A stretch of 64,000 nt of DNA from an uncultured Gammaproteobacteria bacterium (GTDB lineage Bacteria > Patescibacteriota > Patescibacteriia > UBA9934 > GWF2-40-263): NCBI GenBank assembly GCA_964399675.1, contig CAYNRK010000003.1:9033-73032 (forward strand). The letters run 5' to 3'. The notes under the pieces were generated by a model that saw only the letters and a program-made list of their open reading frames with translations, ran no database searches and was not told where the DNA came from. How positions within the stretch are numbered: the stretch's first letter is position 1; each line of letters starts with the position of its first letter. This document shows, piece by piece, positions 9,875 through 33,274 of this stretch. A program made the position numbers and the translations under genes.

Positions 9875-10591
9875 ATGGCCATAAAGAGATTGGGAAATAA
9901 ACCGACTCAGTCTTTGAGTACTGAGCAAAAGATTGCTTTTGCTCTATTGATGTTTCTTGGAATTGGTGGAATTTTATTTGGTTTTCAATCATTTGGTGCA
10001 AATCTGTCCCGTCCTATTCAACTTCAGATCGCTGAGTATTACACAGGCAAGGAGTATTTGAGTACTGATGAGCGTGAGACAAAAGAAAGGGAAGAAGCAA
10101 AAAATAAAGATACAGACAAAGACGGCATTTCAGATTACGACGAGTTATATATTTATAAAACCAGCCCATATCTTACTGACTCAGATTCTGATGGCTTTGA
10201 TGACAAAGCAGAAGTTTTCTCAGGCAATGATCCAAATTGTCCAACAGGTCGTGATTGCGGTCCTGGTGGTCAAGAGGAGGTTGGTAAGAAAGACAATCTT
10301 AAAGGTCTTGTTGAGGGAATAGGTAGTGGAGGAAACAAGATTTTGGAATCAGGACAAATGGAGCTTGAGAATGCACAAGACATTGAGTCTCTTTTTCGTG
10401 ATGCAACCATAGCTGAAATTCGCGAGGCTTTGATGGCAACCGGAATTTCAGAAGAGCAACTTTCAGAAATTGAAGATGATCAATTACAAGAAATGTTTTT
10501 TGGAGCAATTGACGATGCATCAGATGCCGGTGCCTTTGATACTCTTGCAGGAGATGATGTTAATTTACAGGAACTAGGTGCTGGGAACTAG
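9875..10591 (+). CDS. membrane-anchored protein with thrombospondin type-3-like Ca-binding Asp-rich repeats
   Basis: N-terminal TM helix; repeats DTDKDGISDYDE and DSDSDGFDDKAE (DxDxDGxxD); acidic C-terminus. Confidence 0.5.
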   Translation: MAIKRLGNKPTQSLSTEQKIAFALLMFLGIGGILFGFQSFGANLSRPIQLQIAEYYTGKEYLSTDERETKEREEAKNKDTDKDGISDYDELYIYKTSPYLTDSDSDGFDDKAEVFSGNDPNCPTGRDCGPGGQEEVGKKDNLKGLVEGIGSGGNKILESGQMELENAQDIESLFRDATIAEIREALMATGISEEQLSEIEDDQLQEMFFGAIDDASDAGAFDTLAGDDVNLQELGAGN

Positions 10592-10656: not shown

Positions 10657-13600
10657 ATGATTCACATAACGTCAAAAGCTAAGCGGCAATTCGCAGCGGC
10701 GTTTTTTGTGTTTGCAATAATTTTTTCATCAGCAATTGGAATTTTTGTTTCTTCAAACGAAGTGTTGGCCGATAGCCCAAACAAGATGGTACGAATTAAT
10801 GCAGCTGGTGCTATGGTTGCATGTCCTAAAGTAGCATCTCCTTCGCCTCCTTTGCCATGTGTTCCAGAATCCGTCTTGCTAACTTCCAAAGAAGCAGATG
10901 AAAACATGATCAAGCCAGCGCAAAGAATGATTATTGCTCAGGCTCTCATGAACCTCACACAATTTGTTCTTAACAGACTTGCTTACGAAGCAGCGGTTAT
11001 TGTTGCAGCTGGTGGAATAGGGCAAGATTCAATGTTCTACGAAAAAAGTCCCACAGAAGCATGGGGTGACTTTGGTCTTGATATTGCAGGAGAAGCAGTG
11101 GGAACTCTTTCGGATACATTAGAGGATACTTTTGGTTTTGGATTAGACTTGTGTAAACCCCCAAACCAACTTTTAAATTTAAATTTGGCCATTGGTTTTA
11201 AGCAGGAATATCAACCAGGTGACATAAAATGTGACATCATGAAGGTTGGACAAAATTGGAAAGAAGCCTTTACAAACACATTTGGTTTTTTGGAAAGTCC
11301 GGCAGCAATTAAGGAAGCAACTCTTACAAAATTTGCACAAAGCCTGCATCCAGGGCGAAACGAACTAAGTGCTTCAGCAGGCTTTGCGTTTAAAATTCAT
11401 GAAAAGGTTGAGGAAGAGAAACAAAGGAATTTTATTGAGCAAGCAAATAAGGATGGATACAAGGATGTAACCGATTTTGTTACTGGCAAAACCGAGACGC
11501 CTGCAGACACAATGCAAAAGCAATACGAAGAGACGCTTGCCGCCACTTCTGGGCACGAGTCAAGAGTTGATGTTAGTGAACTAATGAGTTGGGGAGATAT
11601 TGGTTTTGGTATGGCAGCTGCTGCTGGATCAACGTTTACAAATACTTTGCTCTCTAAGGTTCTTCAAAATGTTTATGATGGTTTGTTTCAAACAGAGCCT
11701 GACGACATTGATCCGTTTAATATAGAAAGTTTGGCAGGCTCAGGTAAAGAATCAGCACAGGACGCTCTTTCTGAACTTCTTGCAATAAACCCAATCAGTG
11801 TTTCAGATTACAATATATTAAATGAATTTAGTGTTTGTGCTGCATCAGGAGGAATAAATAGAGGGCTTAACAGCTGTGTTTTAGATTCAAGGTTTGCAGG
11901 AGCAATTACAAAAGCTCAAACCGGGCAAGCTCTTACTGTACAAGAAGCAATTGATGCAGGAGATCTTCATGGAGATTGGCCACTTATTTCACCAGAGGCT
12001 AAAGCATTAAATCAAGATCCTTTATGTTATAAGGAAGGGTATTGTTATGGAAATTTGGTAAAGCTAAGAAAGGCGCGAATTCTTCCAATTGGTTGGGAGC
12101 TTGCTGCGCAGAAAAACGATAAAGATAACCCAACCAAGCTTCAGGAAATCGTTGACGGTTTCAGTAAATGTAATGACAACGGAGAAATTGATGACACCTC
12201 AGATCATAAGTGGTGTCATTTAATTGATCCAAACTGGGTGATTAAATATCCTGAGACACAGTGTCGCGCTCAGGCAAACGGTGAGATTCGATTAAGTACA
12301 TATGTGCCCGGTCGCACAAGTGTTTGTGTGGATACTCCAAGCTGTATTGGTGAGGACAATGACGGAAAGTGCTCAGATGGGTTTGGTTATTGTGTGAGTG
12401 AGAAAAATGTTTGGCGTTTTCGTGGAAATGATTGTCCGGCGCAATATGCTTCCTGTCTTTCATTTACAAATACAACAACAAGTGCACAAAGTAATTGGCT
12501 TGTCCGTTCAGTGGACTTTAGTGTTTGTGGACAAAGCAATGCAGGGTGTCAATGGTACAGAACAAATAAGTTTCCAAATGATCAGGGAACAGTGGATGAT
12601 CCAACAGATGATGCGTATGAGTGGTTGGCAAAAGGGGAGACTTATTCAACTTTGAATAGAGATGGATTTTTAGATTACACAGTTGGTAATAACCGCGCTG
12701 CTCCAATGGCTTTGGATTATGTCTATGGAGGAGCACAATCTTTTGTTCACTACGCTTATCAAGATCGTCGTTATCTAACACACAGCGCACAGGCGTGCGA
12801 TGCAGAACAGGTTGGCTGTAGTGAATTGTATTCTGCAAAAGATTTGACCTTGAATATTTTACAAAATCCAAGTTTTGAAAAAGATGAGGATAATAATAAT
12901 ATTCCAGACGCCTGGCTACCAAATGATATAGCAAACGGAAATGAACTGTATTCCGGTCCTGAAACAAATCATGGAACAAATAGTTTGTCTTTAGAAGAAA
13001 ATGAAAGGTACATTCAAAGAGTTCCAATTACTGAAAACAATTTTTATACATTAACTTTTGATGCAAAAGCGCAAATAGATGTTCAAACAAATGTAATAGC
13101 AACAGTAACTCTTTTGGATTATCAAGGAGACAAATTAAATCTAGGTGGGCTTGTAATGCTTGGTGATTGCGATCCGGTCAATGATGATGTGGTAATGAGT
13201 AAAGTCATTAAAAATGAATGGACTAAACTAGAATGCACGTTTACAACACCGCCTGGTAGTAAAACAGCTTCTGTCTCTTTGAATAGAAGCGTTTCAAATG
13301 CTGATGTTGTTTATTTTGATACGTTTCAACTTGAGCTTGGAGAAAATTCAACTCCATTTACTATTGGTTATAACACAGAACCAAGCGGTGGCGAGCACAT
13401 AAAGCTTGCGCCCGGTTATCTTGGTTGTGATGGCATTGATGATCCAAAAGAATGTGAGGGTTATGCGCAAATGTGTCGAGCGCAAGATGTTGGATGTAAT
13501 TTATATTCTCCAAAAGACAATGGTCCTAATGTTCCGGCAATTACAACTGATCTTGATGTGTGTCCATCAGAGTGTGTTGGCTATACAACATTTAAACAAG

Positions 13601-16600
13601 AAAAAACAGATTGGGAGAATGAAAAATTCCCTGTGTATTTTATTGCTGATAAATCAACAGCTTGTCAGGAGCAAAATATTGGATGTGATAGTTTTACAAA
13701 CATCAACACAGTTGCAACCGGTGGGGAAGGGGTTGAGGCTTACACATATTTGCGAGCTTGTGTAACAGAGGGAATGACAAGCAATGCAGCAAATAAACAA
13801 GCTGCGGTTTTCTATACATGGGAAGGTTCTGATAAGGCTGGGTTCCAATTGAAGACATGGAATTTGCTTGAGTCAAACTATTTTCCAAATCCAGACACTT
13901 TGACTTTTGAAGAAAGTAATGTTGTTGAGACAAAGCCGTCTCTGGCACCATGTACAAAACCAGACGTTATTAATGAGGATGAAGTTGTGTGTGATGAGGA
14001 TGCAGCACATGTTAACAGCGAGGCAGTGAAGCAGAATTCAGATTGTGATGAACACGCGGACATTTTTACGAACCCAGACTGTCGTGAGTTCTTTGATTCA
14101 CAAGGAAACATTCACTATCGAGAATGGTCTGAGACTGTCACGGTTGATAACAGCTGCGCACCCTATCGAAAGAATGAGGGAGATCTAGCAAGCTGTAATG
14201 CTTCGGGTGGTTTTTGGACCAATCAAGGTTTCTGTAGATACTTTGGTCTTCAAAAAGAATCAAACAGTTGTCCTGTTTCAGAATCCGGTTGTCGAGAATA
14301 TACAGGTGGTGCAAGTCGAAACGCATCCACGATTATTAATGAGACTTTTGAAAATGAAGATTTTGGTCCGTTTGTTGAACTTTTATCAGCCCGAGTAACA
14401 GCAAGTATTAGCAACGAGTCTTTAGCCTATGCAGGTCATTCTGTAAGCGCTATTGCAAATGATGATAATGGTATTGCAACCTGGGATGCATATGTTGGCG
14501 GGGGAAATAAAAATACTCTTTGTACTGATCAACATCAAACTTATGATGCAGATAGAGGAATGTGTATTGCAGAAAATTCAGTTGATGCTGATTTAAAGTG
14601 TGAGGTTGCAGTTGGGAAAAATGGCTGTAGTCCAATTTCAGAATCGCTTGTTTCAGGAAAAACTTTTATTCTTAGGTTTTGGGCAAAAGGAAGCAGCGGG
14701 TTAAAAGTCGGGTTTAAGCATAGTAAAATGGGTCTTCAAGAGTATTCAGATTTAGTGGATACTGCAAATCAAGATGTGGGTCAAAATCAAATGGCCACAT
14801 TGCCACTTACCGGATCCTGGAAACTGTATGAGCTTGGGCCATTTGACAGCTCAAAGTCAGACTTCTTTTCAAATTTAGCAAAGTTGGTAATTTTTAAATC
14901 CGGAGGCGGTGATCGATTCTTTATTGACAACATAGAACTCATTCAGGTCGAAGACAATCTTGCGATTATAAAAGATTCCTGGGTTGTGCCTTCAACTTGC
15001 GATTCAGCACCAAACGGCTTGCCGGATCCACAGTACTATCTTGGTTGTAGAGCTTATAAAGACAAAGATCAAAAAGACGTGAACTTGTATCAGTTCTCAA
15101 GTTTGTGTTCTGAAGAAGTTGTTGGTTGTGAGGCTTTTTATCAAACCCAACAGTCTGCTTCTGCTTACAAACAGGTTTTCAATGCTCGTTGTCAATATGA
15201 TTCTGATAATAACATGAGCACTGATAATGTGAGCTCAAACGCTCAGGCTTGTGCTGTACAAGGTGTGACATATTGCACAATTCCGGCTTTCCAAAGTTTT
15301 TGTCTGTTTGATGCAACTCAAACATTCCCTGAAAAGCTTCCTTCAAGCGGCGATTTTAGAATTGTTTATGGACCTGAAACCACTATTGTAGATGCGGACA
15401 AGCCAGTCTATGCAGTTAATGATGAATCAGCTAGTTGTTCATCTGCTTTTGCAGGATGTCAGGAATTCGGAAAGCCAAAATTCGAACAGGACCTTTCGCA
15501 AGTCACAGAATTTGAGTCTGTGTATTTCATGAATACGCCGACAACTTATGGTGATGACTTGTGTGATGACGCAGCTCTTTTCTGTGAGGAGTATGAGTCA
15601 ACTTCTGAGGGGAATTTCTATTTTAAAGATCCAATAAGTAAGACTTGTGATTATAAAACAAATGTAAATATTCGAAACAAAAATTATTTAGGCTGGTTCC
15701 GTTCTAATTCAGATGAGCCGTGTTACTTCACGGATGATAACGGTAATGACAAATGGGATGATAATGAATCAGCACATATTGTAAGTGGTGAGAACATGGC
15801 CATGTGGTCAAATGGAGATGTGGATAATTATGATGGTTGGGTTGGAGTATGTGAAAATCAGTATGATATGTGTTCAGAGTTTGTTGATGTGGTTGATACC
15901 GGCGGTGGATTAAATCCTAATGGCGCTTCGTATTATTTCTTAGATGATAAGTCTCTTGATGAAAGTCACCTGCCAAGTACACAAAAATGTGATGGAAAAG
16001 CTGGTCAAAAGTTTGGTTGCGGTTTGTTTAACAATAAGACAAATCCAGAGCTTACGTTTAATACAAACGCATCTTATGTTGCATCCACTCATGCCGATGT
16101 GCTTCTTGATAAAGGAGCAAATGAGCTTATTGATCCAATCAATTGCAACATTGAGGATAATGGTAAATTTACGATTTCAGAGGCAAATAAACAAAAGTTG
16201 AATCTTATTTCCACGAACGTTGATTTGTGTACAAGTCGTTGTGAGTATCAAACAGATGAGGAGGACAGCTTAGAGACTTCGCTCACAACATTTCGTGGAA
16301 TAATTTGGGGCACACATTTTTATTATGAGAGGTCTTGTCTTGTAAATGAGGATTGTCCAAAACTTCAATCTGAAAATGGGGAAAATCTTAGTGGTACTTG
16401 TGGTGTTGCGGCAAGTCAATATCGTTCTGTTAATGACGCAAATACTGTTTTGAAAGTGAATCGTGATAGAACATGTGCTTCATGGTTGGAAGGTAGAATG
16501 GGTCGACAAAGTTGGAATACGCGTACAAATAAATGGGAAACAATTTATAGAGAATTGAAATATTGTGTTCCGGGCGTTGGTGAAAGATGCGAGATTGTCA

Positions 16601-19600
16601 GTAGAGATTCAACTATTTTATCTACCCTTGAATATTCAAAACGCGATGTTAACTGGTCTGGTGTTGATTACTCAGGATTTTCAATTCCAAATCAATTACC
16701 AGTTGAGCAATATTCACAAGAGAATTTAAATCCGGACAAATGGTGTAAGAGAGATGATGGTGATATTGAGTTGAATGAAAACGATCAAGTTAAAAGTTGT
16801 GATGATGAGTCAGATTGTAGCAATAATTATGAATGTAAAAAGGCATCAAAGACATTTATACTCGCTTACAACGCAGGTTCATGTGATAGGTCAGAGGTTG
16901 GTCAAGGCGGTGAATGTAAAATAGGGTTCTGTAGCGTTACAAAAGATTCTTGTGCTTTTGATGAAAATTGTGAGGGCAATGCGAATGAATGTGTGATTGG
17001 TTATTGCCAGGCTGTTGGAAATGTAGGATGTCCTGCAGGCGGCTGTGTTTGTGAATCAAATCCAGATTGTAATGGTGTGATGGCCGATGCTAATGGCAAT
17101 GGAATTGTAGATAATGCAGATTTGACAACTCCAATTTGCGATACAGTGCAACAATTGTGTGTTAACGAACTAATGCCAAATGCCAATAGTTGTGATTCAG
17201 GCTTGAACTCAAGTTGTGACAGCCCTGCTATTTGTAATGTAGCCTTTACGACCTCACAGGGTGCTTGCTTTAACGATAAATGTTTAACAGATATTGTGGA
17301 TACTAATGGTAATGGTTTTGCCAACTCACTAAATGTAGAAGTGGCCAACAAACAAAGTTGTCGTGGGTATCCTGAGATTGATTCACCATTTCCATTAAAA
17401 GTAGTGTCAACTTGGAGTGTTCCAACAAGAGCGGAAGTTGTAGATAGAGATGCTGATGTTTCGTATCAGTCAGAAGCAATTCAAAAAGAGTTTGCGCCTC
17501 AGAATGGTGTTGTGGAAGTAAAACCTGGTTCCAAACCTTTTAGCTATATTAATGGCTATGAAGAATCAAAAGTTTGTGAACCAAATAAAACAACCGGAAA
17601 AGTAACTGATGATTGTTTGTGTTCTTACGATAAGGTTGAGTACGGAGATGGTGTTGATTTTCATTATTATGAGATTGGTGCAAGTGCTGATGCTGCACCA
17701 CCACAAATTTGTCTTGGCGGACCTTTTGCTGGAATGAGTTGTACGGGAGATGAGCAGTGCATGGCTGATAATGTTGCAACAAACGGCACATGTGTTTCTT
17801 ACACAAAAGCACAGCAACTATATGGTTGGCCGGGATATTGTATTGAAAAAGACAGCTCGATTTCTTTGTATGCAAGCACTGACCAAACCGATCGTGCGTG
17901 TTTGACCTGGCTGCCGGTTGATCAGTTAAAAGGCGCAACAGATTTGTTTGCTAAGTACACAGGAGCTGGTTTTCCACCAAGTCAAACTTTGTATTGTGCA
18001 GAGGAAACTGTTGCATATGACATTGCAACAACAGATGTTGGATGTGCTGAGATTTTTCCTGGGGTTGGATATTGTGGATGGGATGAAGATGATGGCACGG
18101 ACGCTGAAATGATGGAGGATATTAATGATGATAATCCTCATGATGTCCTTGATTGTCCAAGTGGGTTTTTTGCAATTATGACAATGTGCGATGAGGAATT
18201 GGCTTTAAATGATTGTGAAAATGGTGATAATGATTATCCGTATTTCTGTGTTCCATATCACTCAAGCAAGATTGAAGATGGAAATGAAATTTTGTGCGAA
18301 CCACCAGATGATGCAACACACCACATTGCAGGTGGTTTTGTACAAGATATTTATGTTGTTCATGATGGCCCTTTTAAAACAAAATATAGCTATTATCAAA
18401 ACTGCACAGTAAGAGGGATTTTACATGAGCACATTGGAAATTATCTTGGTGACGGGGCAACTTCACCGGCCAATTATCCAAGCAGTTCGCCTGGAGATTT
18501 GAGGTATGATCTTGATTATAATTATATTCAGTATTCAGCATGCAAATCTTTGGTTGAGGTTGGAAAAGCAGGTTCACTTCCGGATAATGGTGAAATGAAG
18601 GTTTACAATGTGGGTTGGACAAATCGTTTGTGGGAGGAGAGTGAATATAATATAGAACCAGATGGGAATTTAAAGTTCAATTATTCATACTTAACTGATC
18701 CGTCTTTGTTTGGTCAGTCAAAGAGCTTGCAATCGATTTTAAATACAGATGATCCTGTCCCTCCAAGAGCAATAATGTGTAAGAAGGGTAATGAAGAGAA
18801 AGTGCCAGAAAATCAAGAAACAAGCGCTTGCCCTGCTGGTTTTAATGATTTTGAAGGTAACAGAGAAGCCAGGCCTTATTATGAAGTTAAGTTAGCGTCA
18901 TCTGGATTTGAAGCACCTGTAATAGAATATTGTAAAGAAGATGGTTGTGTTTGTGCTGATATTAAAGAATGTAATTGGCAAAATGATCCAGATCCAAATA
19001 ACCCAGGAAGACAAATTCTGTGTGGAATCCATAGGTGTAATGGAGGAATAAACAACGGTAACTTATGCGAAGATGTTAGTGATTGTCCTTCAAATAATGT
19101 TTGTGATGTAAACAACAATCTTCACACAGGCCAAAACTGGGCTTGTGGTTGGCAGATTTGTCACAAAGGGAAATGTCTTAAACCATGTCAGCTTCAAGGC
19201 GATAAGATTTGTATTGGTGGACCAAATGATCAACAAGACTGTGAAAATACTGCTTTTTGTAGACCAAATCAATGCTACAAAGGGGATTGTACTTCCAAAA
19301 TACCTAAGCCAGGAGGTAATCCAATGTCTGAGCTTGAAGAACCTGTAAAAGCAAAAGAGCGTTTGCAACAAATATTTGCGCGTTCGCTTAGTTTGTTTGA
19401 GTTTGATGATGGACGTTCAGCGATTGCTGACGAGGATTCTCATGTTGACGAAAGTAAAGGAGAATTTGAAGAACCGGATGATCTTAGTTCAGGTGAGGAC
19501 TGGCACTGGGATGTTCGAGCCATGGGAGATGAATATGAGGATGGAACGCCATATGGTCCTAAGGTTATGTCAGTTGGAGATTGTTTGAATACGTTATGTG

Positions 19601-20337
19601 AAGAAGGGCCTGAGGGCGAGTTTAATGTAAATGAAAAGAGTAGTGGAACAGTGAGTGGTGTTGACCAGTTAGGTGTTAGTGTGAGTTTCTTTACCAAAGC
19701 CAATCCAAATCAATTACCAATTCGACGTATTGTTGTTGACTGGGGTGCAGATTATAGTCCGATTGACCAATACTGGCCAACAGATAAACAGAGTGGCTCA
19801 ACAGCCCCTGATAACTTCTACAAAAATTACAGAGGAATTGATTCATCAAAACAAACTCCAATATGTAATGATAGTCCAAACAATTTTGGTGAAAGTTATG
19901 AGGCCTGTAATTCCGGTTATATCTCGTTTAAATATGATTACACTTGTACAAGATTTGATGTACAAACCCTGGAAGGTGAAGAAATGAAGCTGTGTAAAAC
20001 AGATGTAAATAATCGCCTTATAAATTCACCATGTACAGGAAATGCACCAGACACAGAGGTTCCTATTGCAGGTGCAGTTGGCGCGTGTGTGTTCCAACCA
20101 CGTGTGCATGTATTGGATAACTGGGGTTGGTGTACTGGGCATTGTGATGCAGGGGATGAAGATTTTGATAATGGTCCAGGGTGTTATTCTGGTAAAGGGC
20201 CTGTTGGTCCTGCGGAAATTAACGAGTGTAATATTGACGAGTGTCCAGGGAACGGTAATGGGTGTCCAGATTTTTTGGGCGGACTTACAAACCCATGGGT
20301 GAACTTTAATGGATATGTGATTGTAAGGCCGGAGTAG
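10657..20337 (+). CDS. giant (3226 aa) cysteine-rich secreted/surface protein with recurring C-x(4-7)-GC-x-x-[FYW] motifs
   Basis: Single uninterrupted ORF of 9.68 kb; N-terminal signal/TM (FAAAFFVFAIIFSSAIGIFVSS). Over 10 copies of motifs such as VGCSELYS, VGCNLYS, IGCDSFT, VGCEAFY, AGCQEFG, AGCQWYR, SGCREYT. Asp/Asn/Gly-rich. No recognisable enzymatic motifs. Confidence 0.8.
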   Translation: MIHITSKAKRQFAAAFFVFAIIFSSAIGIFVSSNEVLADSPNKMVRINAAGAMVACPKVASPSPPLPCVPESVLLTSKEADENMIKPAQRMIIAQALMNLTQFVLNRLAYEAAVIVAAGGIGQDSMFYEKSPTEAWGDFGLDIAGEAVGTLSDTLEDTFGFGLDLCKPPNQLLNLNLAIGFKQEYQPGDIKCDIMKVGQNWKEAFTNTFGFLESPAAIKEATLTKFAQSLHPGRNELSASAGFAFKIHEKVEEEKQRNFIEQANKDGYKDVTDFVTGKTETPADTMQKQYEETLAATSGHESRVDVSELMSWGDIGFGMAAAAGSTFTNTLLSKVLQNVYDGLFQTEPDDIDPFNIESLAGSGKESAQDALSELLAINPISVSDYNILNEFSVCAASGGINRGLNSCVLDSRFAGAITKAQTGQALTVQEAIDAGDLHGDWPLISPEAKALNQDPLCYKEGYCYGNLVKLRKARILPIGWELAAQKNDKDNPTKLQEIVDGFSKCNDNGEIDDTSDHKWCHLIDPNWVIKYPETQCRAQANGEIRLSTYVPGRTSVCVDTPSCIGEDNDGKCSDGFGYCVSEKNVWRFRGNDCPAQYASCLSFTNTTTSAQSNWLVRSVDFSVCGQSNAGCQWYRTNKFPNDQGTVDDPTDDAYEWLAKGETYSTLNRDGFLDYTVGNNRAAPMALDYVYGGAQSFVHYAYQDRRYLTHSAQACDAEQVGCSELYSAKDLTLNILQNPSFEKDEDNNNIPDAWLPNDIANGNELYSGPETNHGTNSLSLEENERYIQRVPITENNFYTLTFDAKAQIDVQTNVIATVTLLDYQGDKLNLGGLVMLGDCDPVNDDVVMSKVIKNEWTKLECTFTTPPGSKTASVSLNRSVSNADVVYFDTFQLELGENSTPFTIGYNTEPSGGEHIKLAPGYLGCDGIDDPKECEGYAQMCRAQDVGCNLYSPKDNGPNVPAITTDLDVCPSECVGYTTFKQEKTDWENEKFPVYFIADKSTACQEQNIGCDSFTNINTVATGGEGVEAYTYLRACVTEGMTSNAANKQAAVFYTWEGSDKAGFQLKTWNLLESNYFPNPDTLTFEESNVVETKPSLAPCTKPDVINEDEVVCDEDAAHVNSEAVKQNSDCDEHADIFTNPDCREFFDSQGNIHYREWSETVTVDNSCAPYRKNEGDLASCNASGGFWTNQGFCRYFGLQKESNSCPVSESGCREYTGGASRNASTIINETFENEDFGPFVELLSARVTASISNESLAYAGHSVSAIANDDNGIATWDAYVGGGNKNTLCTDQHQTYDADRGMCIAENSVDADLKCEVAVGKNGCSPISESLVSGKTFILRFWAKGSSGLKVGFKHSKMGLQEYSDLVDTANQDVGQNQMATLPLTGSWKLYELGPFDSSKSDFFSNLAKLVIFKSGGGDRFFIDNIELIQVEDNLAIIKDSWVVPSTCDSAPNGLPDPQYYLGCRAYKDKDQKDVNLYQFSSLCSEEVVGCEAFYQTQQSASAYKQVFNARCQYDSDNNMSTDNVSSNAQACAVQGVTYCTIPAFQSFCLFDATQTFPEKLPSSGDFRIVYGPETTIVDADKPVYAVNDESASCSSAFAGCQEFGKPKFEQDLSQVTEFESVYFMNTPTTYGDDLCDDAALFCEEYESTSEGNFYFKDPISKTCDYKTNVNIRNKNYLGWFRSNSDEPCYFTDDNGNDKWDDNESAHIVSGENMAMWSNGDVDNYDGWVGVCENQYDMCSEFVDVVDTGGGLNPNGASYYFLDDKSLDESHLPSTQKCDGKAGQKFGCGLFNNKTNPELTFNTNASYVASTHADVLLDKGANELIDPINCNIEDNGKFTISEANKQKLNLISTNVDLCTSRCEYQTDEEDSLETSLTTFRGIIWGTHFYYERSCLVNEDCPKLQSENGENLSGTCGVAASQYRSVNDANTVLKVNRDRTCASWLEGRMGRQSWNTRTNKWETIYRELKYCVPGVGERCEIVSRDSTILSTLEYSKRDVNWSGVDYSGFSIPNQLPVEQYSQENLNPDKWCKRDDGDIELNENDQVKSCDDESDCSNNYECKKASKTFILAYNAGSCDRSEVGQGGECKIGFCSVTKDSCAFDENCEGNANECVIGYCQAVGNVGCPAGGCVCESNPDCNGVMADANGNGIVDNADLTTPICDTVQQLCVNELMPNANSCDSGLNSSCDSPAICNVAFTTSQGACFNDKCLTDIVDTNGNGFANSLNVEVANKQSCRGYPEIDSPFPLKVVSTWSVPTRAEVVDRDADVSYQSEAIQKEFAPQNGVVEVKPGSKPFSYINGYEESKVCEPNKTTGKVTDDCLCSYDKVEYGDGVDFHYYEIGASADAAPPQICLGGPFAGMSCTGDEQCMADNVATNGTCVSYTKAQQLYGWPGYCIEKDSSISLYASTDQTDRACLTWLPVDQLKGATDLFAKYTGAGFPPSQTLYCAEETVAYDIATTDVGCAEIFPGVGYCGWDEDDGTDAEMMEDINDDNPHDVLDCPSGFFAIMTMCDEELALNDCENGDNDYPYFCVPYHSSKIEDGNEILCEPPDDATHHIAGGFVQDIYVVHDGPFKTKYSYYQNCTVRGILHEHIGNYLGDGATSPANYPSSSPGDLRYDLDYNYIQYSACKSLVEVGKAGSLPDNGEMKVYNVGWTNRLWEESEYNIEPDGNLKFNYSYLTDPSLFGQSKSLQSILNTDDPVPPRAIMCKKGNEEKVPENQETSACPAGFNDFEGNREARPYYEVKLASSGFEAPVIEYCKEDGCVCADIKECNWQNDPDPNNPGRQILCGIHRCNGGINNGNLCEDVSDCPSNNVCDVNNNLHTGQNWACGWQICHKGKCLKPCQLQGDKICIGGPNDQQDCENTAFCRPNQCYKGDCTSKIPKPGGNPMSELEEPVKAKERLQQIFARSLSLFEFDDGRSAIADEDSHVDESKGEFEEPDDLSSGEDWHWDVRAMGDEYEDGTPYGPKVMSVGDCLNTLCEEGPEGEFNVNEKSSGTVSGVDQLGVSVSFFTKANPNQLPIRRIVVDWGADYSPIDQYWPTDKQSGSTAPDNFYKNYRGIDSSKQTPICNDSPNNFGESYEACNSGYISFKYDYTCTRFDVQTLEGEEMKLCKTDVNNRLINSPCTGNAPDTEVPIAGAVGACVFQPRVHVLDNWGWCTGHCDAGDEDFDNGPGCYSGKGPVGPAEINECNIDECPGNGNGCPDFLGGLTNPWVNFNGYVIVRPE

Positions 20338-20347
20338 TTTTCTTCTT

Positions 20348-20412
20348 GCGTTATTGCGAAGCAATCTTCATATACGAAGATTGCTTCGGCCTTTCAGGCC
20401 TCGCAATGACGC
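20348..20412. repeat. palindromic repeat element (same family) directly after the giant gene; likely acts as its terminator
   Basis: gcgttattgcgaag ... cctcgcaatgacgc form the ends. Perfect 12-bp internal stem gaagcaatcttc-atatac-gaagattgcttc and hairpin ggcc-tttca-ggcc. Confidence 0.85.
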
Positions 20413-20486
20413 ATGAAGTTTTTTGTTTCAATTAGAAAACCCGGTTGCCGAAGCTACCGGGAGTGAAGAGGTTGCAGCGGCCGAAG

Positions 20487-26136: not shown

Positions 26137-28125
26137 ATGAACACGCTCAGAATTCGGTTTTTCTTTTACTTCCTCTGTGCTCAGGCCTTCTTGGCGTTTG
26201 TGATGATCATGATGGCCTGCACAGAGTCGGTGGATGTCTCCTCAAGAGAGCATTCATTCGAAGGTGGTGGTGTCTACAGGACAACGATCCATCTTCCCGG
26301 TTCGCCAGCAGTGGAGCTTCAGTGCGTGCAAGGTGTTGGCGGTTCCTACTCGCACACTTCTCGATCGACCTACTACGATATCGATCTTGACACCTCGAAC
26401 ATCCGTGATGAGAGCGTGTACGCGCCGGCTGATGGGATCGCTTTCGTTCATATGCACAACTCGCATATGAACTTTGGAAAGCATGTGAACATTGACCTGG
26501 GCGATGGCACGTACGTGGTGATTGCGCACATGTCAAAGATCGTGGTCTCTGACAACGCTGAAGTGGCAACCGGACAGCTACTAGGGCTTGAAGGATGCAC
26601 TGGATCCTGCACAGGCGATCACATTCATGTCGGTCTTCACAGAGGGAATGCGGCTCAACCTGCGCAGTATGGTGAGTCTGTTCCTGTTCGATACCATGTA
26701 GCGGATAACACAGAGCCGCGCGGACACAAGCCGCTTGATGTTGAAGAGACGGTCTGTGGTCTCCGAGCATTCGGAGACAACCAAAACGGGCAGTTCTATA
26801 CCTCTGCACTTGACGTAACGCTTTTCCATCCAAACGGCACGCTTGTGAAGACGTCAAACAACGCACGTGTGTATCTCATTGACAACGGTCAATTGCGACA
26901 CATTGCAAACGAACGAACGTTTCACTCATACGGCTACAGTTTCATGGACGTTGCCATCATTTCAGATGAAGAACGCTCATGTTACCCCGAGGGTCCCGTG
27001 CTTGACCTTGTGGGTATGGTGGATGCTGTTACGGATGACAACGATCAGATTTGGCTACTGGTTGGTCCAAGGCAAAGGAGCGACCGGTATCGTATCCGCG
27101 TCAGAAACGAAGCGTTTGAGCAGGTGCTTGAGTCCTGGGGAGTCAACGTTGGTCTTCAAGGACCTCGACAGGTTCGCTCAAATGCACGCGAGCTTGCTCA
27201 GTGGCCTGTGAGATCCGGAACAGCTCGATTCCGAGATGGAAGTCTTGTCAGAGAGCAAGATCGTTCGGATGTCTATCTGATCTCAGACTCTGTTGCGCTT
27301 CCGATTGCGAACTGGCAGACGTATCTGCGTCTTGGGTTTTACGATCGACAAGTGCTCATGGTTGGAAACGGTGAGCTAGCACAGGTTCAGCGAGCAGCTG
27401 GCAATTGCCTGGTGGGCAGCAACTGCTTGGACGGATACAACATCAGTGTGTGCGGAAACGACTTGAGGCTGGATCTCAGGCATGAGTCAGACACCAGCGG
27501 CGATCTACAAGTTGCTGGATTTCGTGAAAACGAAAACGAGGAACACAATGGCGAAAAAGAAGAGCAAGAAGGTGATGGGGAGAGTGAGGAGGAGGTGGTT
27601 GCAGGTACCACTCTGGACGAAAGCGAGGATGAAGAACGTGAGATTGAAGCAGGTGTAACTCCTCTTTGCAACGGCCAGGACGCATGCCTACACGACAACG
27701 ACGGTGATGACAAGGCCGAGTTCCTTCTGATGCGAAATCATCAGTGGTTGAATCCGGACTTGCACGATGAGTTCGCGGTTGTTTACGGCAACGGAGGTTG
27801 CTTTAACAATCGTTTCGAGCCAGGTGACGTTTTCTATCCAAGAGACGGTTACTACTGGATCGATTTCACTGTCTTTGACAGACCGTGCAGCAGTGAGCTC
27901 ACACTCATCTCTGTGGTCGGCACTGACGGCGAAGATCCACGTCCTTCAATGGACAACTGGTACTGGTGGCAGAATGCACCGTTCTGTTCGCAAGGCTCCA
28001 TGCTTTGCAATCTCATGAACAACGGTGTGCCATGGGAAGAGTGGTTGGTTTCGGTTGCCTGGCATCCGGATCAAGGCCTCTTGCCAAACGGCAACGGCTT
28101 CACACGAAATACTCAGCTTCACTGA
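26137..28125 (+). CDS. secreted M23-family (LytM-like) peptidoglycan metalloendopeptidase, high-GC gene with acidic E/D-rich region
   Basis: Signal peptide. HxxxD (SHTSRSTYYDIDLD) and HxH (GDHIHVGLH) zinc-site motifs typical of M23. RBS AGGAGAGAGG. GC about 55%, against about 38% in flanking genes. Confidence 0.7.
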   Translation: MNTLRIRFFFYFLCAQAFLAFVMIMMACTESVDVSSREHSFEGGGVYRTTIHLPGSPAVELQCVQGVGGSYSHTSRSTYYDIDLDTSNIRDESVYAPADGIAFVHMHNSHMNFGKHVNIDLGDGTYVVIAHMSKIVVSDNAEVATGQLLGLEGCTGSCTGDHIHVGLHRGNAAQPAQYGESVPVRYHVADNTEPRGHKPLDVEETVCGLRAFGDNQNGQFYTSALDVTLFHPNGTLVKTSNNARVYLIDNGQLRHIANERTFHSYGYSFMDVAIISDEERSCYPEGPVLDLVGMVDAVTDDNDQIWLLVGPRQRSDRYRIRVRNEAFEQVLESWGVNVGLQGPRQVRSNARELAQWPVRSGTARFRDGSLVREQDRSDVYLISDSVALPIANWQTYLRLGFYDRQVLMVGNGELAQVQRAAGNCLVGSNCLDGYNISVCGNDLRLDLRHESDTSGDLQVAGFRENENEEHNGEKEEQEGDGESEEEVVAGTTLDESEDEEREIEAGVTPLCNGQDACLHDNDGDDKAEFLLMRNHQWLNPDLHDEFAVVYGNGGCFNNRFEPGDVFYPRDGYYWIDFTVFDRPCSSELTLISVVGTDGEDPRPSMDNWYWWQNAPFCSQGSMLCNLMNNGVPWEEWLVSVAWHPDQGLLPNGNGFTRNTQLH

Positions 28126-28229
28126 GTTTCGTCTCGCTGGACTCGGTAACTTGTCCAGCTTTTCTATTTAAAAAACATCCCCAATTTTTCTGCATATCCG
28201 AAAGGATTTATGATATAATTTCAACGGTT

Positions 28230-31163
28230 ATGCAAAACCTTTTTTTCCGTTTGATTGAAACGCTTTTGTTGTTATCTAAGCGTTTGAAATCGTTTACAAA
28301 CCGCAAGAGGAAACAAGCGGGAATTTTTGGTTTAATTACCTTTGTCGGTGTGTTTGTTGCAGCAAGGCCGGTGTTTGCTCAAACATCTGAGCCAGGTGTA
28401 TTGGCTTGGTTTTTTGAATTAATTGGAAATCTAGCCATTGCAATTGCAGGATTCCTTTCTCAAATGGTTGTCGCAATTATAAACGCGATCATACCGGTCA
28501 TGCTTTACAATGATTTCTCAAACAACCCAATTGTAAGTGCTGGTTGGGCAATTATGAGAGACACTGTGAACATGTTCTTTGTTATCATTCTTATCATTGT
28601 TGCTTTTGGAACTATTTTTGGACACTCTCGTTTTCAGTGGCAGCAGCAGATTCCAAAGCTCATGATCTTTGCGATTGTTATCAATTTTTCAAAAACACTT
28701 TGTGGACTCATGATTGATTTTGGACAGATCATCATGCTTACGTTTGCAAATGCACTTCAGGAAATTGCTGCCGGTAACTTTATACAACTTCTCGGACTAG
28801 GTGATATTTATTCAGTTAGTACTGCAACAGACAAAATGCAGAACCAAGGTGGTACAAGTGCATTTGACTGGATGGCAGCAGGCCTTGGTGCTGCATTTAT
28901 TATGTTGATAGTTTTTGTAACCATGGTGCTTTTGCTTGTGATTTTGTTGTATCGCATTGTGATGCTTTGGATTATGATCGTGCTTGCACCTCTTGCCTGG
29001 TTTGTTGGTGGGGCTGGTGGGGCAAATGGGATTGTGCGGTCCAATGCATATGCACAATGGTGGGAACGATTTAAGTGCTTGGTTGCAATTGGTCCTGTTC
29101 TTACGTTTTTTTTATGGCTAACTCTTGCTGTTGCCGGTGCCGGTAATGTTGCGCGCTCGACCGGTTTTAATGTTGGGTCTCCAACAGGGATTAAAAATCC
29201 ATCCGCCATTCTCTCTACAATTTTTGAGCTTGACAGATTTATTAGTTTTATAATTGGAATTGCCATGATCTACGCAGGTTTTGAAGCAGCTCAGCAGTTG
29301 TGTTCTTCAATGTCCGGATCGTTTTTGGGTAAGCAGCTTTCAGGCAAGTCACCGTTTAAAGCACCTGTTGTTAGGGGTGCTGCTGGAGCTGGTGCAAAAG
29401 TTGGTGCATGGGGTGCAAGACAGGCGTATAGACCAATTGGCGCTGCTGGCCGCGGTGTTCGACGTTCATTAGGTGCTGCTCTTGATCAAAAACAAAGCAC
29501 AGGGGGTCGTTGGAAATATACAAAACCATTTACAAGAAAAGGACGTGCTGATATTGCAAGAGCAGCAGTTGGTAAAGCACCAAAACCACTTCAGAAATTA
29601 ATTGCACCTGTTGTGCAAGGATATGCAACTGGTCAAGAACAAAAAACACGCGATGATGTTGCAAAAGCCGCAGAAAAATACAAAGACAGAGACAAATCAG
29701 TTAAGGTTGATCAATTGGAACGATTTGCTGAAGGTGGTGCCAGTACACTTACAGGCGGAAAGAATGAAGCAATGGGTCTTATGATGGAGGCTATGGGTGA
29801 TAAGGAAATGATGAAGCAGCTTAGGGCTTCGGGCGCTGGTGAAAAACTTTGGGAAGAAAACGGAGAGGATCTTAAGCGTGTATATGCCAGCGATTCAGCG
29901 TCAATGGATAAGATTGAAAAGTTTGAAAAAGAAAATGCTGATATAACCGGAGCAACTCATCTTATTAATGACGAACAAGATGTTCGCGATCTTTCAGATC
30001 AGGCTGTGGCAGATGGTGATGTAAGAGCAGCTATGAGAAGTAAGCAGATGAGGTATAAGGGTCAAGTGATGAATATGGAAGATGCTGCAGAGCAAGGTGC
30101 TTTCGGTGCTCGCAAACAAGCGATTGTACAAGAAGCAATGGCTGGTGGTAGTGGTAAAGGAGCTTTGTATGATCGCATGAGCAACAGAGAATTATCAAGA
30201 GTATCAACAGAGGCCCTTCTTTCAAGTGCTTCAGTTGCGACTCTTGCACGTGCGATGAAAGTAGCTACCCAACAAGGCAATGCCGGTCGTGCAGATGCGC
30301 TAAGCGCCGGTATTGCATCGGGTTCTACAGGCGCAGATTCAAATATGCAAATGGCAGACGGAAGAGATGCATTAGAGAGTGCTCAGTGGTCGTTCGAAGA
30401 TGTTCTTGCTGATGAAAGTGTTCCAGATACAGATCGAGCAAGAGTAGAGGACGTAGCCGGTCGTAATGCCGAACGATTGGAGGCTGCACAACAGACAAGT
30501 GCACCAATACTTGGCGAACATCCTGATCAATATGCTGATTCTGTTGTTTTGGCAGAAGAGGAAAGAACAACGCAATTGGTGGGTTATGATGCAATTCAGC
30601 CAATGAGCGCAGCTGCAATCGGGCAGAAATATGTTAAACGAGCCGGATTTGCTGATCAAAGTCAAGAAGAGGTTGGAAGAGCATTGCATGCGGCAGGAAA
30701 CACTGCAGATGCTGTTGATCAAGAAGCAGAAGGACAAAAGAAAGAGATTGCAGAAGCATCACCTGATATGAATCCTATTCTAACTGAATTTCAAAGATTA
30801 ACTGAGGAAATTGGAGGTCTTAGAGAATCGATCGAGACGCAGGTAGAGTCAGAGATGGCGCCAGAGACACAACAACTGGATGCGATTCAAAACCAACTTG
30901 CTTCTAGTGCTTTGGAGGGAGACCAAAGAGAAAAATATAAGATACAAGCCAAGGAAATAGCCAAGGCAATTAATCAGCGACGCTCTGAAGTTACTGATGG
31001 GACACAAATTATGAATTTAATGCGTCAGAAAGCTGCTTTGCAGATTCCTCCTGAACACAAAGATCTTACAGCCAGGATTGTGAAAACAAGTCAGGATAGG
31101 AGGGTTGCCCAAGCTACTGGTGCTGCACTTGAAGATGTTGGAAGAAAAAAGCGTGAAACATGA
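28230..31163 (+). CDS. VirB6/TrbL-like polytopic membrane protein with long hydrophilic C-terminal extension (T4SS-like component)
   Basis: Start at the ATG at 28230, preceded by TATAAT at 28214. The longer ORF-track start at 27966 runs back into the 3' end of the GC-rich M23 gene. At least 6 TM helices (..IVLAPLAWFVGGAGG..), then about 550 aa of charged coiled-coil-like sequence. Confidence 0.5.
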   Translation: MQNLFFRLIETLLLLSKRLKSFTNRKRKQAGIFGLITFVGVFVAARPVFAQTSEPGVLAWFFELIGNLAIAIAGFLSQMVVAIINAIIPVMLYNDFSNNPIVSAGWAIMRDTVNMFFVIILIIVAFGTIFGHSRFQWQQQIPKLMIFAIVINFSKTLCGLMIDFGQIIMLTFANALQEIAAGNFIQLLGLGDIYSVSTATDKMQNQGGTSAFDWMAAGLGAAFIMLIVFVTMVLLLVILLYRIVMLWIMIVLAPLAWFVGGAGGANGIVRSNAYAQWWERFKCLVAIGPVLTFFLWLTLAVAGAGNVARSTGFNVGSPTGIKNPSAILSTIFELDRFISFIIGIAMIYAGFEAAQQLCSSMSGSFLGKQLSGKSPFKAPVVRGAAGAGAKVGAWGARQAYRPIGAAGRGVRRSLGAALDQKQSTGGRWKYTKPFTRKGRADIARAAVGKAPKPLQKLIAPVVQGYATGQEQKTRDDVAKAAEKYKDRDKSVKVDQLERFAEGGASTLTGGKNEAMGLMMEAMGDKEMMKQLRASGAGEKLWEENGEDLKRVYASDSASMDKIEKFEKENADITGATHLINDEQDVRDLSDQAVADGDVRAAMRSKQMRYKGQVMNMEDAAEQGAFGARKQAIVQEAMAGGSGKGALYDRMSNRELSRVSTEALLSSASVATLARAMKVATQQGNAGRADALSAGIASGSTGADSNMQMADGRDALESAQWSFEDVLADESVPDTDRARVEDVAGRNAERLEAAQQTSAPILGEHPDQYADSVVLAEEERTTQLVGYDAIQPMSAAAIGQKYVKRAGFADQSQEEVGRALHAAGNTADAVDQEAEGQKKEIAEASPDMNPILTEFQRLTEEIGGLRESIETQVESEMAPETQQLDAIQNQLASSALEGDQREKYKIQAKEIAKAINQRRSEVTDGTQIMNLMRQKAALQIPPEHKDLTARIVKTSQDRRVAQATGAALEDVGRKKRET

Positions 31164-31196
31164 TTGAAAGAAAGTTATGCAACTTAAAAAATCAAC

Positions 31197-32834: not shown

Positions 32835-32838
32835 ATGT

Positions 32839-33273
32839 ATGCCAGAGCAGTTCACAATCCCACAATTTATTGAGTCAGAAGATAAAATTTTTGGGCCTGT
32901 AACAGCCAGGCAATTTATTATTGTCATGGTTGTTGGGCTTGTAGAGTTTATTTTGTTTAAGGCGATTTCTTTTGTCATATTCTTACTGATAGGTATTCCG
33001 TTTTTTGCTCTTGGAATGATTTTCGCATTTGCCAAAGTCAATGGTCAGCCTTTTCACTACTTTATGTTAAACTTAATTCAGACATTTAAAAAACCATCAC
33101 TGCGAGTTTGGGATAAGACCCTGACGGATTCTGAAATTAAATTTATTATAAAAAAGGTTGAGGAGATTCCACCTGAAGCGCCAAAACGAAAAACAAGATT
33201 AGGTAAATCAAGACTTCAAGAACTTACCCTTGTTGTGAATACAGGCGGTGTATATAAACCAGACGAGAACTAG
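32839..33273 (+). CDS. small two-TM membrane protein (VirB3/PrgI-like) immediately preceding VirB4
   Basis: 144 aa with a hydrophobic hairpin (FIIVMVVGLVEFILF / FVIFLLIGIPFFALGMIFAF). Positioned as in Gram-positive-type T4SS operons. Confidence 0.4.
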   Translation: MPEQFTIPQFIESEDKIFGPVTARQFIIVMVVGLVEFILFKAISFVIFLLIGIPFFALGMIFAFAKVNGQPFHYFMLNLIQTFKKPSLRVWDKTLTDSEIKFIIKKVEEIPPEAPKRKTRLGKSRLQELTLVVNTGGVYKPDEN

Positions 33274-33274
33274 T

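Follow-up and report, generated by a model that had tools for sequence, protein, structure and literature searches.

By gene position, the closest described counterparts of the gene analysed here are the surface adhesins PrgA, PrgB and PrgC of Enterococcus faecalis (pCF10), whose genes lie directly upstream of and in the same orientation as the VirB6-like, PrgI and VirB4 genes of a monoderm-type type IV secretion system (T4SS). The gene in question encodes a cysteine-rich protein of 3226 amino acids, hereafter the giant protein. It was found in a stretch of 64,000 nucleotides, called the window in the following (assembly GCA_964399675.1, contig CAYNRK010000003.1, positions 9,033 to 73,032), from a genome titled 'uncultured Gammaproteobacteria bacterium' that GTDB places in the Patescibacteriota. 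The giant gene shares the position of the prg genes, and the role that may be proposed by analogy, namely to provide cell-cell contact for a secretion system, is alike. However, the giant protein is homologous to the Prg adhesins neither in sequence nor in domains, it lacks an LPXTG sortase anchor, and it is 2.5 times larger and rich in cysteine. The C-terminal LPXTG motif with hydrophobic segment and basic tail, by which PrgB and the MSCRAMM proteins are recognised, is absent, whereas the adjacency to T4SS channel genes is present, in a region that is syntenic as a whole. By analogy, the giant protein would work most like the pCF10-type surface adhesins, with which it shares gene position only. 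We consider it, with a rough probability of 0.45, to be a non-covalently anchored, glycan-binding contact adhesin, which possibly serves the T4SS.

The RTX adhesins SiiE, LapA and MpIBP as well as the Bap, Ebh and Embp proteins are likewise acidic, calcium-associated extracellular proteins of several thousand residues with lectin-like modules, and they are thought to bridge cells to surfaces. Proteins of the RTX and Bap type consist of tens of tandem Ig-like repeats, are poor in cysteine and depend on a type I secretion system or on sortase. In contrast, the giant protein is non-repetitive, Sec-dependent, predicted to contain about 74 disulfides and collinear across a class. Indeed, arrays of Ig-like, BIg or cadherin-like repeats were found in the giant protein neither by hhalign nor by Tandem Repeats Finder (TRF) or Pfam. 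The Pam pili were set aside for comparison as they occur in other candidate phyla radiation (CPR) classes and are built from small Ig-like pilins (bioRxiv 10.64898/2026.03.03.709456).

As an analogy for the retention of a giant protein that has no anchor, a further parallel may be drawn with the archaeal proteins SlaA and SlaB of the Sulfolobales, where a large secreted canopy protein is likewise co-encoded with a small membrane-anchored partner. However, there is no homology, SlaA has about 1400 residues, a lattice of the giant protein would be hypothetical and the anchor role of the 238-amino-acid protein encoded next to it is putative. The giant proteins of predatory Omnitrophota also are very large, extracellular, derived from uncultivated bacteria and equipped with beta-barrels resembling carbohydrate-binding modules (CBMs) (West-Roberts et al., bioRxiv 10.1101/2023.11.21.568195). 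TSP3-repeat structures appear in the reference list of that paper. The Omnitrophota proteins differ in that they comprise tens of thousands of amino acids, are repetitive, belong to another phylum and have not been reported to be cysteine-rich, and none of the searches made here detected homology between them and the giant family. The small partner protein, for its part, contains two DxDxDGxxDxxE motifs and a Cys pair that weakly match TSP3_bac and the Myxococcus proteins MtsD and CglD, which are involved in cell cohesion and gliding adhesion. All of these matches are below the curated cut-offs and confined to the repeat, and the partner is a single-pass membrane protein of 238 amino acids rather than a large lipoprotein.

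Finally, two domains of the giant protein match the CBM4/9/16/22 family (PF02018) at the level of the hidden Markov model (HMM), the PDB profile and the predicted fold alike, with a target TM (template modelling) score of about 0.7. Unlike in the described CBM families, these modules make up about 10% of the protein, a glycoside hydrolase domain was not detected and the identity to solved CBMs is 12-18%. Their membership in the known fold family is marginal by HMM and clear by the modelled fold. A known characterised family was rejected as an explanation for the whole protein: searches of Pfam, NCBIfam, PHROGs and the PDB returned only CBM_4_9 and sub-threshold matches. Judged by its sequence, the giant protein falls outside all described adhesin families, having no LPXTG motif, tandem Ig-like repeats, SLH or CWB2 domain or toxin cassette.

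The giant gene and its cysteine motif

The giant gene is a single uninterrupted frame.

10657..20337, plus strand: giant open reading frame (ORF), one ATG-to-TAG frame of 3226 amino acids plus stop codon

An earlier note on this DNA, made from the letters alone, had described one gene of 3226 amino acids that fills about 15% of the window, and both statements hold (15.1% computed). The possibility that several genes or a frameshift artefact had been mistaken for one gene could be ruled out by the intact ORF and by uninterrupted ORFs of at least 2900 amino acids in 56 of 83 related loci. In these 56 loci, the longest ORF measures 2900-3480 amino acids; shorter ones are mostly found where the contig is short or presumably truncated. 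Tandem DNA repeats were not detected in the giant gene by TRF, and a Shine-Dalgarno sequence is not obvious at its start.

The commonest residues of the protein are Asp (8.3%), Gly (8.1%), Ser (7.6%) and Asn (7.5%), in agreement with the Asn/Asp/Gly-rich composition reported before, and the net charge is -249. Cysteine was counted 148 times (4.6%); the protein is indeed Cys-rich, although the earlier figure of over 150 residues was too high. The proposed recurring motif C-x4-7-GC-x-x-[FYW] occurs seven times, compared to 0.20 times expected from composition-preserving shuffles, of which none among 5000 reached seven, and 0.37 times if the Cys positions are kept fixed. All seven strings that had been quoted as examples (VGCSELYS, VGCNLYS, IGCDSFT, VGCEAFY, AGCQEFG, AGCQWYR and SGCREYT) are present in the translation. 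The strict copies are located at amino acids 624, 940, 1003, 1205, 1484, 1594 and 3196; with relaxed copies at 714, 1636 and 1732 there are about ten in all, which fall between amino acids 620 and 1740 apart from the strict one at 3196. The spacing C-x6-C is enriched as well (18 observed, 6.7 expected), and the positions of the motif are kept in homologs.

A conserved disulfide network

The conservation of the cysteines was measured over an alignment of 114 full-length homologs. In 111 of the 148 Cys columns the residue is at least 90% conserved, and the mean identity of Cys columns is 0.86, compared to 0.09-0.65 for the other residue types. The weakly conserved cysteines are almost all located in a lineage-specific insertion at amino acids 2750-2880. 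Moreover, 149 of 180 full-length family members (83%; binomial p 1e-19) have an even number of cysteines, as predicted for a fully paired disulfide network. The window also encodes an enzyme for oxidative folding, which the earlier note had located correctly.

46121..46780, minus strand: DsbA-like thiol-disulfide oxidoreductase, membrane-anchored by a transmembrane (TM) segment, with CIAC active site (Pfam Thioredoxin_4 2.7e-20, DSBA 8.6e-12)

A VKOR partner for DsbA was not found within the window. Oxidoreductases of the DsbA/MdbA type have been reported to occur widely among CPR genomes (bioRxiv 10.1101/335083). Because the giant protein has a signal peptide and conserved cysteines of mostly even number, and because a membrane-anchored CxxC DsbA is encoded in the window and such enzymes occur throughout the CPR, the view that it is an oxidised, disulfide-stabilised extracellular protein, as had been proposed, is well supported by these sequence features. 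All that characterises the class of disulfide proteins, namely a secretion signal, conserved paired cysteines and an available oxidative folding enzyme, was found. For a bacterial protein, so disulfide-rich an architecture is unusual.

Export, anchoring and the small partner protein

The features that bear on export and on the attachment of the giant protein to the cell are the following.

10657..10770, plus strand: Sec signal peptide, amino acids 1-38, the sole stretch with a Kyte-Doolittle value above 2
9875..10591, plus strand: small partner gene, 238 amino acids, with N-terminal TM segment (amino acids ~20-37), acidic ectodomain, two TSP3-type motifs and a DPNCPxGxxC loop
10575..10640, plus strand: RNA hairpin over the stop codon of the small gene and the spacer (dG -40.7 kcal/mol, z -4.55, 0 of 200 shuffles as stable)
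20342..20425, plus strand: terminator-like nested palindrome and U-run directly 3' of the giant stop codon (dG -46 kcal/mol, z -10.1)

Only amino acids 13-31 of the giant protein are TM-like, and the statement that there are no TM segments beyond the N-terminal signal could thus be upheld. Since the homologs carry Sec signal peptides with n, h and c regions and an AxA end, amino acids 13-31 are read as part of a cleaved signal, and cleavage probably occurs after VLA38. In the gene call of the JGI for the identical protein (P0001, 3143 amino acids) translation starts at Met84, 83 codons late, and the signal peptide is lost (10657-10905). Several database homologs are likewise truncated at the N-terminus, so that automated annotation would fail to recognise them as secreted.

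The giant protein contains no lipobox Cys and no LPXTG motif with hydrophobic tail (its C-terminus is ...NPWVNFNGYVIVRPE), and neither in the giant protein nor in its orthologs did Pfam and NCBIfam detect an SLH, CWB2 or comparable wall-anchoring domain. As TM segments, lipobox, LPXTG, SLH and CWB2 are all lacking, the small upstream protein is the obvious candidate anchor. It has a basic N-terminus and a single TM helix. A small gene of 215-250 codons is present immediately upstream of the giant gene in 80 of the 83 loci, and it also adjoins the giant gene in the most divergent members examined (~27% identity, Magasanikbacteria-type loci). An alignment of 81 sequences, the window copy and 80 locus-derived copies, revealed the conserved core DTDxDGLxDYDELYVYKTSPYLxDxDSDG...DPNCPxGxxC, which may be read as two TSP3-type Ca sites plus a Cys pair. 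The two DxDxDGxxDxxE copies, DTDKDGISDYDE and DSDSDGFDDKAE in the window, are kept across the alignment. The earlier description of a Ca-binding TSP3 protein upstream of the giant gene is borne out by the motifs and by the position, whereas the Pfam match to TSP3_bac (PF18884) scores 23.2 bits and falls short of the 25-bit cut-off.

The small gene and the giant gene look like one transcription unit because a hairpin spans the stop codon of the former and a terminator-like hairpin follows the latter. The first hairpin might set the stoichiometry or the stability of the two cistrons. The palindrome at the end of the giant gene belongs to a repeat family, as had been recognised: if up to 2 mismatches are allowed, its core GAAGATTGCTTCG can be counted 11 times within the window, compared to 2.6 times expected. 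Intergenic palindromes with GAAGATTGCTTCG are located at 3828-3860, 6365, 20357-20388, 36177, 51388, 61574, 61724, 63100 and 63298. The family may represent terminators or REP-like elements.

Domain architecture of the giant protein

Structural models were obtained with AlphaFold2 (AF2) from alignments of 38-39 rows for amino acids 90-1260 (model 1) and 1440-2639 (model 2). Together with the profile searches and the mean identity in the alignment they divide the protein as follows (pLDDT, predicted local distance difference test).

10942..11838, plus strand: N-terminal helical region, amino acids 96-394; long helices in the AF2 model, pLDDT 30-60; mean identity 0.37
11839..12636, plus strand: N core, amino acids 395-660; 14 Cys; identity 0.55, the highest in the protein
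12856..13356, plus strand: CBM-like jelly roll 1, amino acids 734-900, by Pfam CBM_4_9 and Foldseek; identity 0.26
13357..14436, plus strand: Cys-module region A, amino acids 901-1260; beta-rich, motif copies 940, 1003 and 1205; identity 0.48
14437..14973, plus strand: CBM-like jelly roll 2, amino acids 1261-1439, by hhalign and PDB profile; identity 0.29
14974..16803, plus strand: region B, amino acids 1440-2049; beta-rich conserved domains of unrecognised fold, motif copies 1484, 1594, 1636 and 1732; identity 0.41
16804..17376, plus strand: Cys-knot region, amino acids 2050-2240; 21 Cys with spacing C-x4-C-x6-C-x5-C; pLDDT 68-92
17377..19476, plus strand: amino acids 2241-2940; beta-rich and conserved in 2241-2560, of low conservation in 2561-2940
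19477..20334, plus strand: C-terminal domain, amino acids 2941-3226; consensus DNWGWCTGxC ... NPWVxYDGxIxVxP; identity 0.37

Two jelly rolls of the CBM4/9/16/22 type had been missed when the protein was first described. For the first one, Pfam CBM_4_9 (PF02018) matches amino acids 734-875 with an E value of 1.2e-5 and 26.1 bits, a marginal pass of the 25.9-bit cut-off, and many orthologs carry a precomputed PF02018 match. In a Foldseek search of the PDB with model 1, amino acids 734-900, modelled at a pLDDT of 72-86, matched 2zew/2zex (CBM16), 2y64 (CBM4-2), 1gui (CBM4) and 4xup (CBM22) with E values of 4.6e-7 to 1e-5 and target TM scores of 0.6-0.72. Further matches of model 1 were to CBM61 and to CBM-like domains of phage tailspikes. 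The second jelly roll (~amino acids 1315-1400) has a profile match to 1GUI (CBM4; E 2.8e-5), and Pfam CBM_4_9 matches it in 21 of 54 orthologs. Moreover, in an hhalign all-against-all profile comparison of 120-residue windows, amino acids ~780-900 matched ~1320-1440 with a probability of 96.5%, which corresponds to the two CBM-like domains. CBM1 and CBM2 are the least conserved folded modules of the protein (0.26 and 0.29, compared to 0.48-0.55 in their flanks), as expected for specificity-determining heads. The picture that the sequences suggest is that of a conserved scaffold carrying variable lectin-type modules.

Apart from the CBM pair and a Cys module of ~30 residues (983-1013, matching 1574-1604), the hhalign self-comparison revealed no internal repeats. 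The earlier idea of a fibre built from a recurring module had to be given up, as repeat detection yields just these elements and no tandem DNA repeats. The Cys motif is a local element scattered among otherwise unique domains. Among 14 C-x6-C pairs that were tabulated for their placement relative to modelled beta-strands, seven of ten motif copies (amino acids 593 to 1732) have their second Cys at the first strand residue or, in the case of 1205/1212, two residues before it; only two copies are in confident regions.

The remaining parts of the protein are largely without counterparts. Model 1 has a mean pLDDT of 61, with confident blocks at amino acids 409-539 (pLDDT 84-93; mostly small helices and few short strands), 729-909 (the CBM) and 979-1209 (beta-rich; pLDDT 75-94 within region A), while its N-terminal 300 residues are long helices of low confidence. 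With this model Foldseek returned CBMs alone from the PDB, which masks other domains. The N core contains an invariant basic cluster in GNLVKLRKARI as well as the invariant charged or polar residues D454, N466, K469, R471, K472, R474, E481, D524, R553, D559 and E582, and it has no sequence match in the PDB. Model 2 has a mean pLDDT of 67 and is beta-rich throughout, with confident blocks of region B at ~amino acids 1499-1579 and 1779-1929. For this model Foldseek found no match at an E value of 1e-3 or below in the PDB (best E ~1) or in BFVD, and region B has no Pfam match. In the Cys-knot region, DxNGNG motifs resembling Ca loops can be read from the translation, and orthologs show sub-threshold DUF7107/Dickkopf_N matches near amino acids 2100-2170. 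Identity and occupancy are 0.33 and 0.83 in amino acids 2241-2560, and 0.16 and 0.59 in amino acids 2561-2940, a part that includes the lineage-specific Cys-rich insertion at ~2750-2880. Scans of the giant protein and its orthologs with Pfam, NCBIfam and PHROGs gave nothing above threshold but CBM_4_9, sub-threshold GTA_spike_fiber matches being also seen. A phmmer search with the whole protein and searches with three segment profiles against PDB sequences likewise gave CBM matches only. About 2700 residues are left without a match to a sequence family in Pfam, NCBIfam, PHROGs or the PDB.

The earlier statement that enzymatic domains are lacking agrees with the Pfam and NCBIfam scans of the giant protein. 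CBM4/9/16/22 modules are typically appended to glycoside hydrolases, and the PDB matches of the two modules all come from glycanases or tailspikes. The giant protein could accordingly be pictured as a novel extracellular enzyme, in which a hydrolase or lyase residing in new domains, for instance in the N core (amino acids 395-660), is targeted by the CBMs to the host wall or to an environmental polysaccharide, in the manner of multimodular glycoside hydrolases. The N core is the most conserved part and has many invariant charged residues, and the nearby genes for an M23 peptidase, a pilin-fused amidase and VanY show an investment in wall remodelling. We nevertheless regard a catalytic function as quite unlikely: a catalytic family was not detected over the full length by Pfam, NCBIfam, PHROGs and PDB profile searches, amino acids 1440-2639 have no Foldseek match, and 3200 residues with ~74 disulfides are far beyond the typical CBM-containing enzyme.

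Distribution and conservation of the giant family

A search of 5.8 billion proteins revealed 177 relatives at an E value of 0.001 or below. The best 120 of these have lengths of 2001-3509 amino acids (most ~2900-3500), share 31-47% identity with the giant protein and come nearly all from Candidatus Uhrbacteria or from metagenome-assembled genomes of Patescibacteria. They are named 'hypothetical protein' with the exception of P0081, a 'carbohydrate binding domain-containing protein, partial'. In a scan of one genome per GTDB species, at least 410 genomes contained a relative. A profile of the N core (amino acids 395-660) had 1154 matches among 1.84 billion representatives at 50% identity, 1125 of them at an E value of 1e-10 or below and 973 at 1e-30 or below. 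Among the best 150 of the 1154 matches, almost all lie at ~amino acids 305-700 (mostly 340-670) of proteins that mostly have 2700-3600 residues; within this set, the N core is confined to the giant-protein architecture. Even members with ~27% identity, one of which is labelled Candidatus Magasanikbacteria, can be aligned through to the C-terminus, beginning at about residue 50, and they contain 96-204 Cys. On the basis of these comparisons, the giant protein is an ortholog of a collinear family of 2700-3600 amino acids in Uhrbacteria, Magasanikbacteria and relatives, and not a lineage oddity. The earlier note had recognised neither this class-wide conservation nor the constant position upstream of a T4SS cluster. 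Full-text literature searches on giant, cysteine-rich or adhesin proteins of Uhrbacteria and Parcubacteria and on the T4SS turned up no description of the family.

'Uncultured Gammaproteobacteria bacterium' is the title of many records with the Patescibacteria-specific giant gene (loci L016, L018, L022, L025, L027 and others; TPA_asm binchicken/SRP co-assemblies). One record with a giant gene is labelled Candidatus Eisenbacteria and another one Candidatus Kapaibacterium. These titles look like taxonomic mislabels.

The conservation of the family bears on two other explanations. The giant protein could be an envelope scaffold or a canopy of the S-layer type that covers the cell itself, held by the small membrane protein as a stalk and binding the cell's own wall polymers through the CBM-like modules. 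The collinear conservation over the full length and across the class resembles that of the neighbouring housekeeping genes (31-45% identity for the giant protein, 46% for KsgA and Sua5). A canopy would also suit the strict pairing with the small TM protein, the very acidic character and the Ca-binding motifs, the lack of an own anchor and the strong terminator after the giant gene. Furthermore, Luef et al. in 2015 reportedly observed by cryo-electron microscopy that groundwater CPR cells have surface layers of unidentified proteins, which counts in the same direction. However, neither SLH nor CWB2 nor another known S-layer anchoring domain was found in the Pfam and NCBIfam scans, S-layer proteins as a rule are far smaller and show little conservation from genus to genus, and variable CBM heads fit diverse external ligands better than the own wall. 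We therefore hold a scaffold to be rather unlikely.

Secondly, a giant secreted protein in a probable episymbiont, followed by a variable region, is reminiscent of polymorphic toxins and contact-dependent effectors, which would consist of a long delivery stalk and a C-terminal toxic tip. The C-terminal 286 amino acids are conserved, with an identity of 0.37 and invariant Cys, Trp and Gly residues. A conserved small gene of the immunity type was not found downstream, where the genes differ between genomes, and the library scans detected no toxin, RHS/YD or PT-type domains. This explanation is extremely improbable, since a conserved C-terminus that is not followed by a conserved immunity gene largely refutes it.

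The T4SS downstream of the giant gene

A complete-looking T4SS cluster of the monoderm type follows the giant gene in the window, as identified by Pfam matches.

26137..37292, plus strand: monoderm-type T4SS cluster
26137-28125, plus strand: M23 peptidase (M23/VirB1-like)
27966-31163, plus strand: VirB6/TrbL-like protein, 1065 amino acids
32839-33273, plus strand: PrgI/VirB3-like protein
33248-33955, plus strand: TraC-like protein
33959-36043, plus strand: VirB4
36603-37292, plus strand: ComF-like protein

The cluster also holds genes for unfamiliar proteins of 545 amino acids (after the VirB6/TrbL-like protein) and 197 amino acids (after VirB4), and it is followed by tRNAs, RecG (40524-42527) and RadA (42529-43815, minus strand). 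The same cluster is present 0.2-9 kb downstream of the giant gene in other genomes. Of 8 loci whose downstream flank measures at least 9 kb, 7 have co-oriented T4SS genes there; where the flank is only 3.5-4.8 kb long, the count is 21 of 48 loci. In locus L089 the VirB6-like gene starts 192 nucleotides past the giant stop codon, and the distance is 2.9 kb in L088. Uhrbacteria proper have a variable insert between the giant gene and the T4SS, which contains kinase, serS, transposase or nuclease genes. In the window, the two are ~6 kb apart, with the terminator, a 4-kb high-GC island (55-65% GC, compared to 39% around it) and serS between them.

A survey of the T4SS of Patescibacteria reported that a PrgB-like adhesin is not detectable in the T4SS loci, that ksgA is common near virB4 and that comF, recG and radA occur there too in the GTDB class ABY1 (PMC12102498). 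The comF-like, recG, radA and ksgA genes of the window agree with this ABY1 context, and ABY1 is taken to be the likely class. The giant gene would be one of the unannotated neighbours of T4SS loci in that survey.

It is also conceivable that the giant protein is not an independent adhesin but an integral extracellular part of the T4SS, for instance a stalk or channel extension that takes the place of the absent pilus and is docked to the VirB6-like protein, which is unusually large. The distance of 192 nucleotides to the co-oriented VirB6-like gene in L089 and the location within 10 kb in 7 of 8 long-flank loci are compatible with such a part. Moreover, the monoderm-type T4SS has no pilins and an adhesin has not been found in Patescibacteria (PMC12102498), and high conservation suits a machine part. 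However, unrelated genes (a Ser/Thr kinase, serS and mobile-element genes) and the terminator intervene in the window and in most Uhrbacteria, and the library scans revealed no homology to known T4SS subunits. In addition, the upstream housekeeping synteny is equally conserved, so that the position is weak evidence. A role as a T4SS component is thus very unlikely in our view.

Some further observations concern the neighbouring DNA. A GC island at 20400-24300 has 55-65% GC in a background of 38-42% and contains a lipoprotein-like ORF (20487-21200, minus strand), a secreted/TM ORF of 334 amino acids and a Ser/Thr kinase gene. A second one at 25800-28200 (~52% GC) covers the M23 peptidase gene. 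The kinase, the 334-amino-acid ORF and the M23 gene are syntenic in other Uhrbacteria. The islands look less like inserted foreign DNA than like the result of allelic replacement by a relative of higher GC content or of a chimeric assembly. Within 43819-46780 (minus strand), two genes fuse an N-terminal T4SS_pilin domain (PF18895, VirB2/TrbC-like) to wall hydrolases (Amidase_2 and VanY/M15, respectively). The DsbA-like gene is located immediately upstream of the fusions in the same direction, and the three genes possibly form an envelope-remodelling operon. At 56021-60340 (minus strand), an AAA_5 (MoxR/dynein-like) ATPase gene lies beside the gene for a CobT_C/VWA protein of 760 amino acids, a typical MoxR-VWA pair that is unrelated to the giant gene.

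A contact adhesin as the most probable function

As far as the sequence permits, the giant protein is a strong candidate for the means by which these cells attach to others. Such a role is plausible because the protein carries two CBM-type lectin folds and because its membrane partner is conserved and carries Ca-binding motifs; that the other cell is a host is what we infer from the whole. The contact adhesin may be envisaged to work in the following way. The very acidic multidomain protein would be exported by the Sec system, leaving a mature form of ~3190 residues, and ~74 conserved disulfides, probably made by the membrane-bound DsbA-type oxidase of the cell, would keep its numerous beta-rich domains locked. 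At the surface, the giant protein would be held by the small type-II membrane protein encoded with it, the TSP3 repeats of which are predicted to bind Ca2+. There the scaffold, which consists of the N core and the Cys-module regions, could display two fast-evolving jelly-roll lectin modules of the CBM4/9/16/22 type, and these may bind glycans in the envelope of another cell. The giant protein would in this way be the contact or adhesion arm of episymbiont-like bacteria, and it would probably bring the envelope of the partner cell to the type IV secretion/DNA-uptake machinery encoded downstream, if the two cooperate.

Several points weigh against a contact adhesin. Host-facing adhesins usually evolve fast, and a collinear conservation over the full length down to 27% identity is unusual for them. 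Catalytic domains could be hidden in the part without a recognised fold, which amounts to about 85% of the protein, and the confidence of the AF2 models is no more than moderate (mean pLDDT 61 and 67). Furthermore, a strong terminator, the 4-kb high-GC island and serS part the giant gene from the T4SS genes. As the entire region YidC-Wzy-GroES/EL-RF-epimerase-Sua5-KsgA ... SerRS is syntenic across the clade, the closeness to the T4SS may be inherited gene order and not functional coupling.

A bolder version, which is speculative and which we would not expect to hold in full, is that the small TSP3 protein and the giant protein form a new extracellular organelle of the ABY1-class Patescibacteria. 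This organelle could be pictured as a 'contact arm', locked by disulfides and composed of folds that are for the most part novel, which replaces the pilus or adhesin missing from the monoderm-type T4SS and whose exchangeable CBM-like heads select the cell with which DNA or protein is transferred.

Implications for the biology of Patescibacteria

Host recognition by the ultra-small CPR bacteria/Patescibacteria and the role of their conserved T4SS are central open questions. Most classes have no known adhesin, and a 2025 survey found none beside the T4SS. The giant gene would take up ~1% of the genome if this measures ~1 Mb, as may be assumed from the 1.0-Mb contig on which the homolog P0073 is encoded. 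With its membrane partner and its location beside the T4SS, it is a concrete and clonable candidate. Even if the giant protein served just to build the envelope, it would still represent a major constituent of the surface of an uncultivated class. If, however, the two proteins do form an extracellular organelle, the contact arm would be a host-range determinant of a large uncultivated class.

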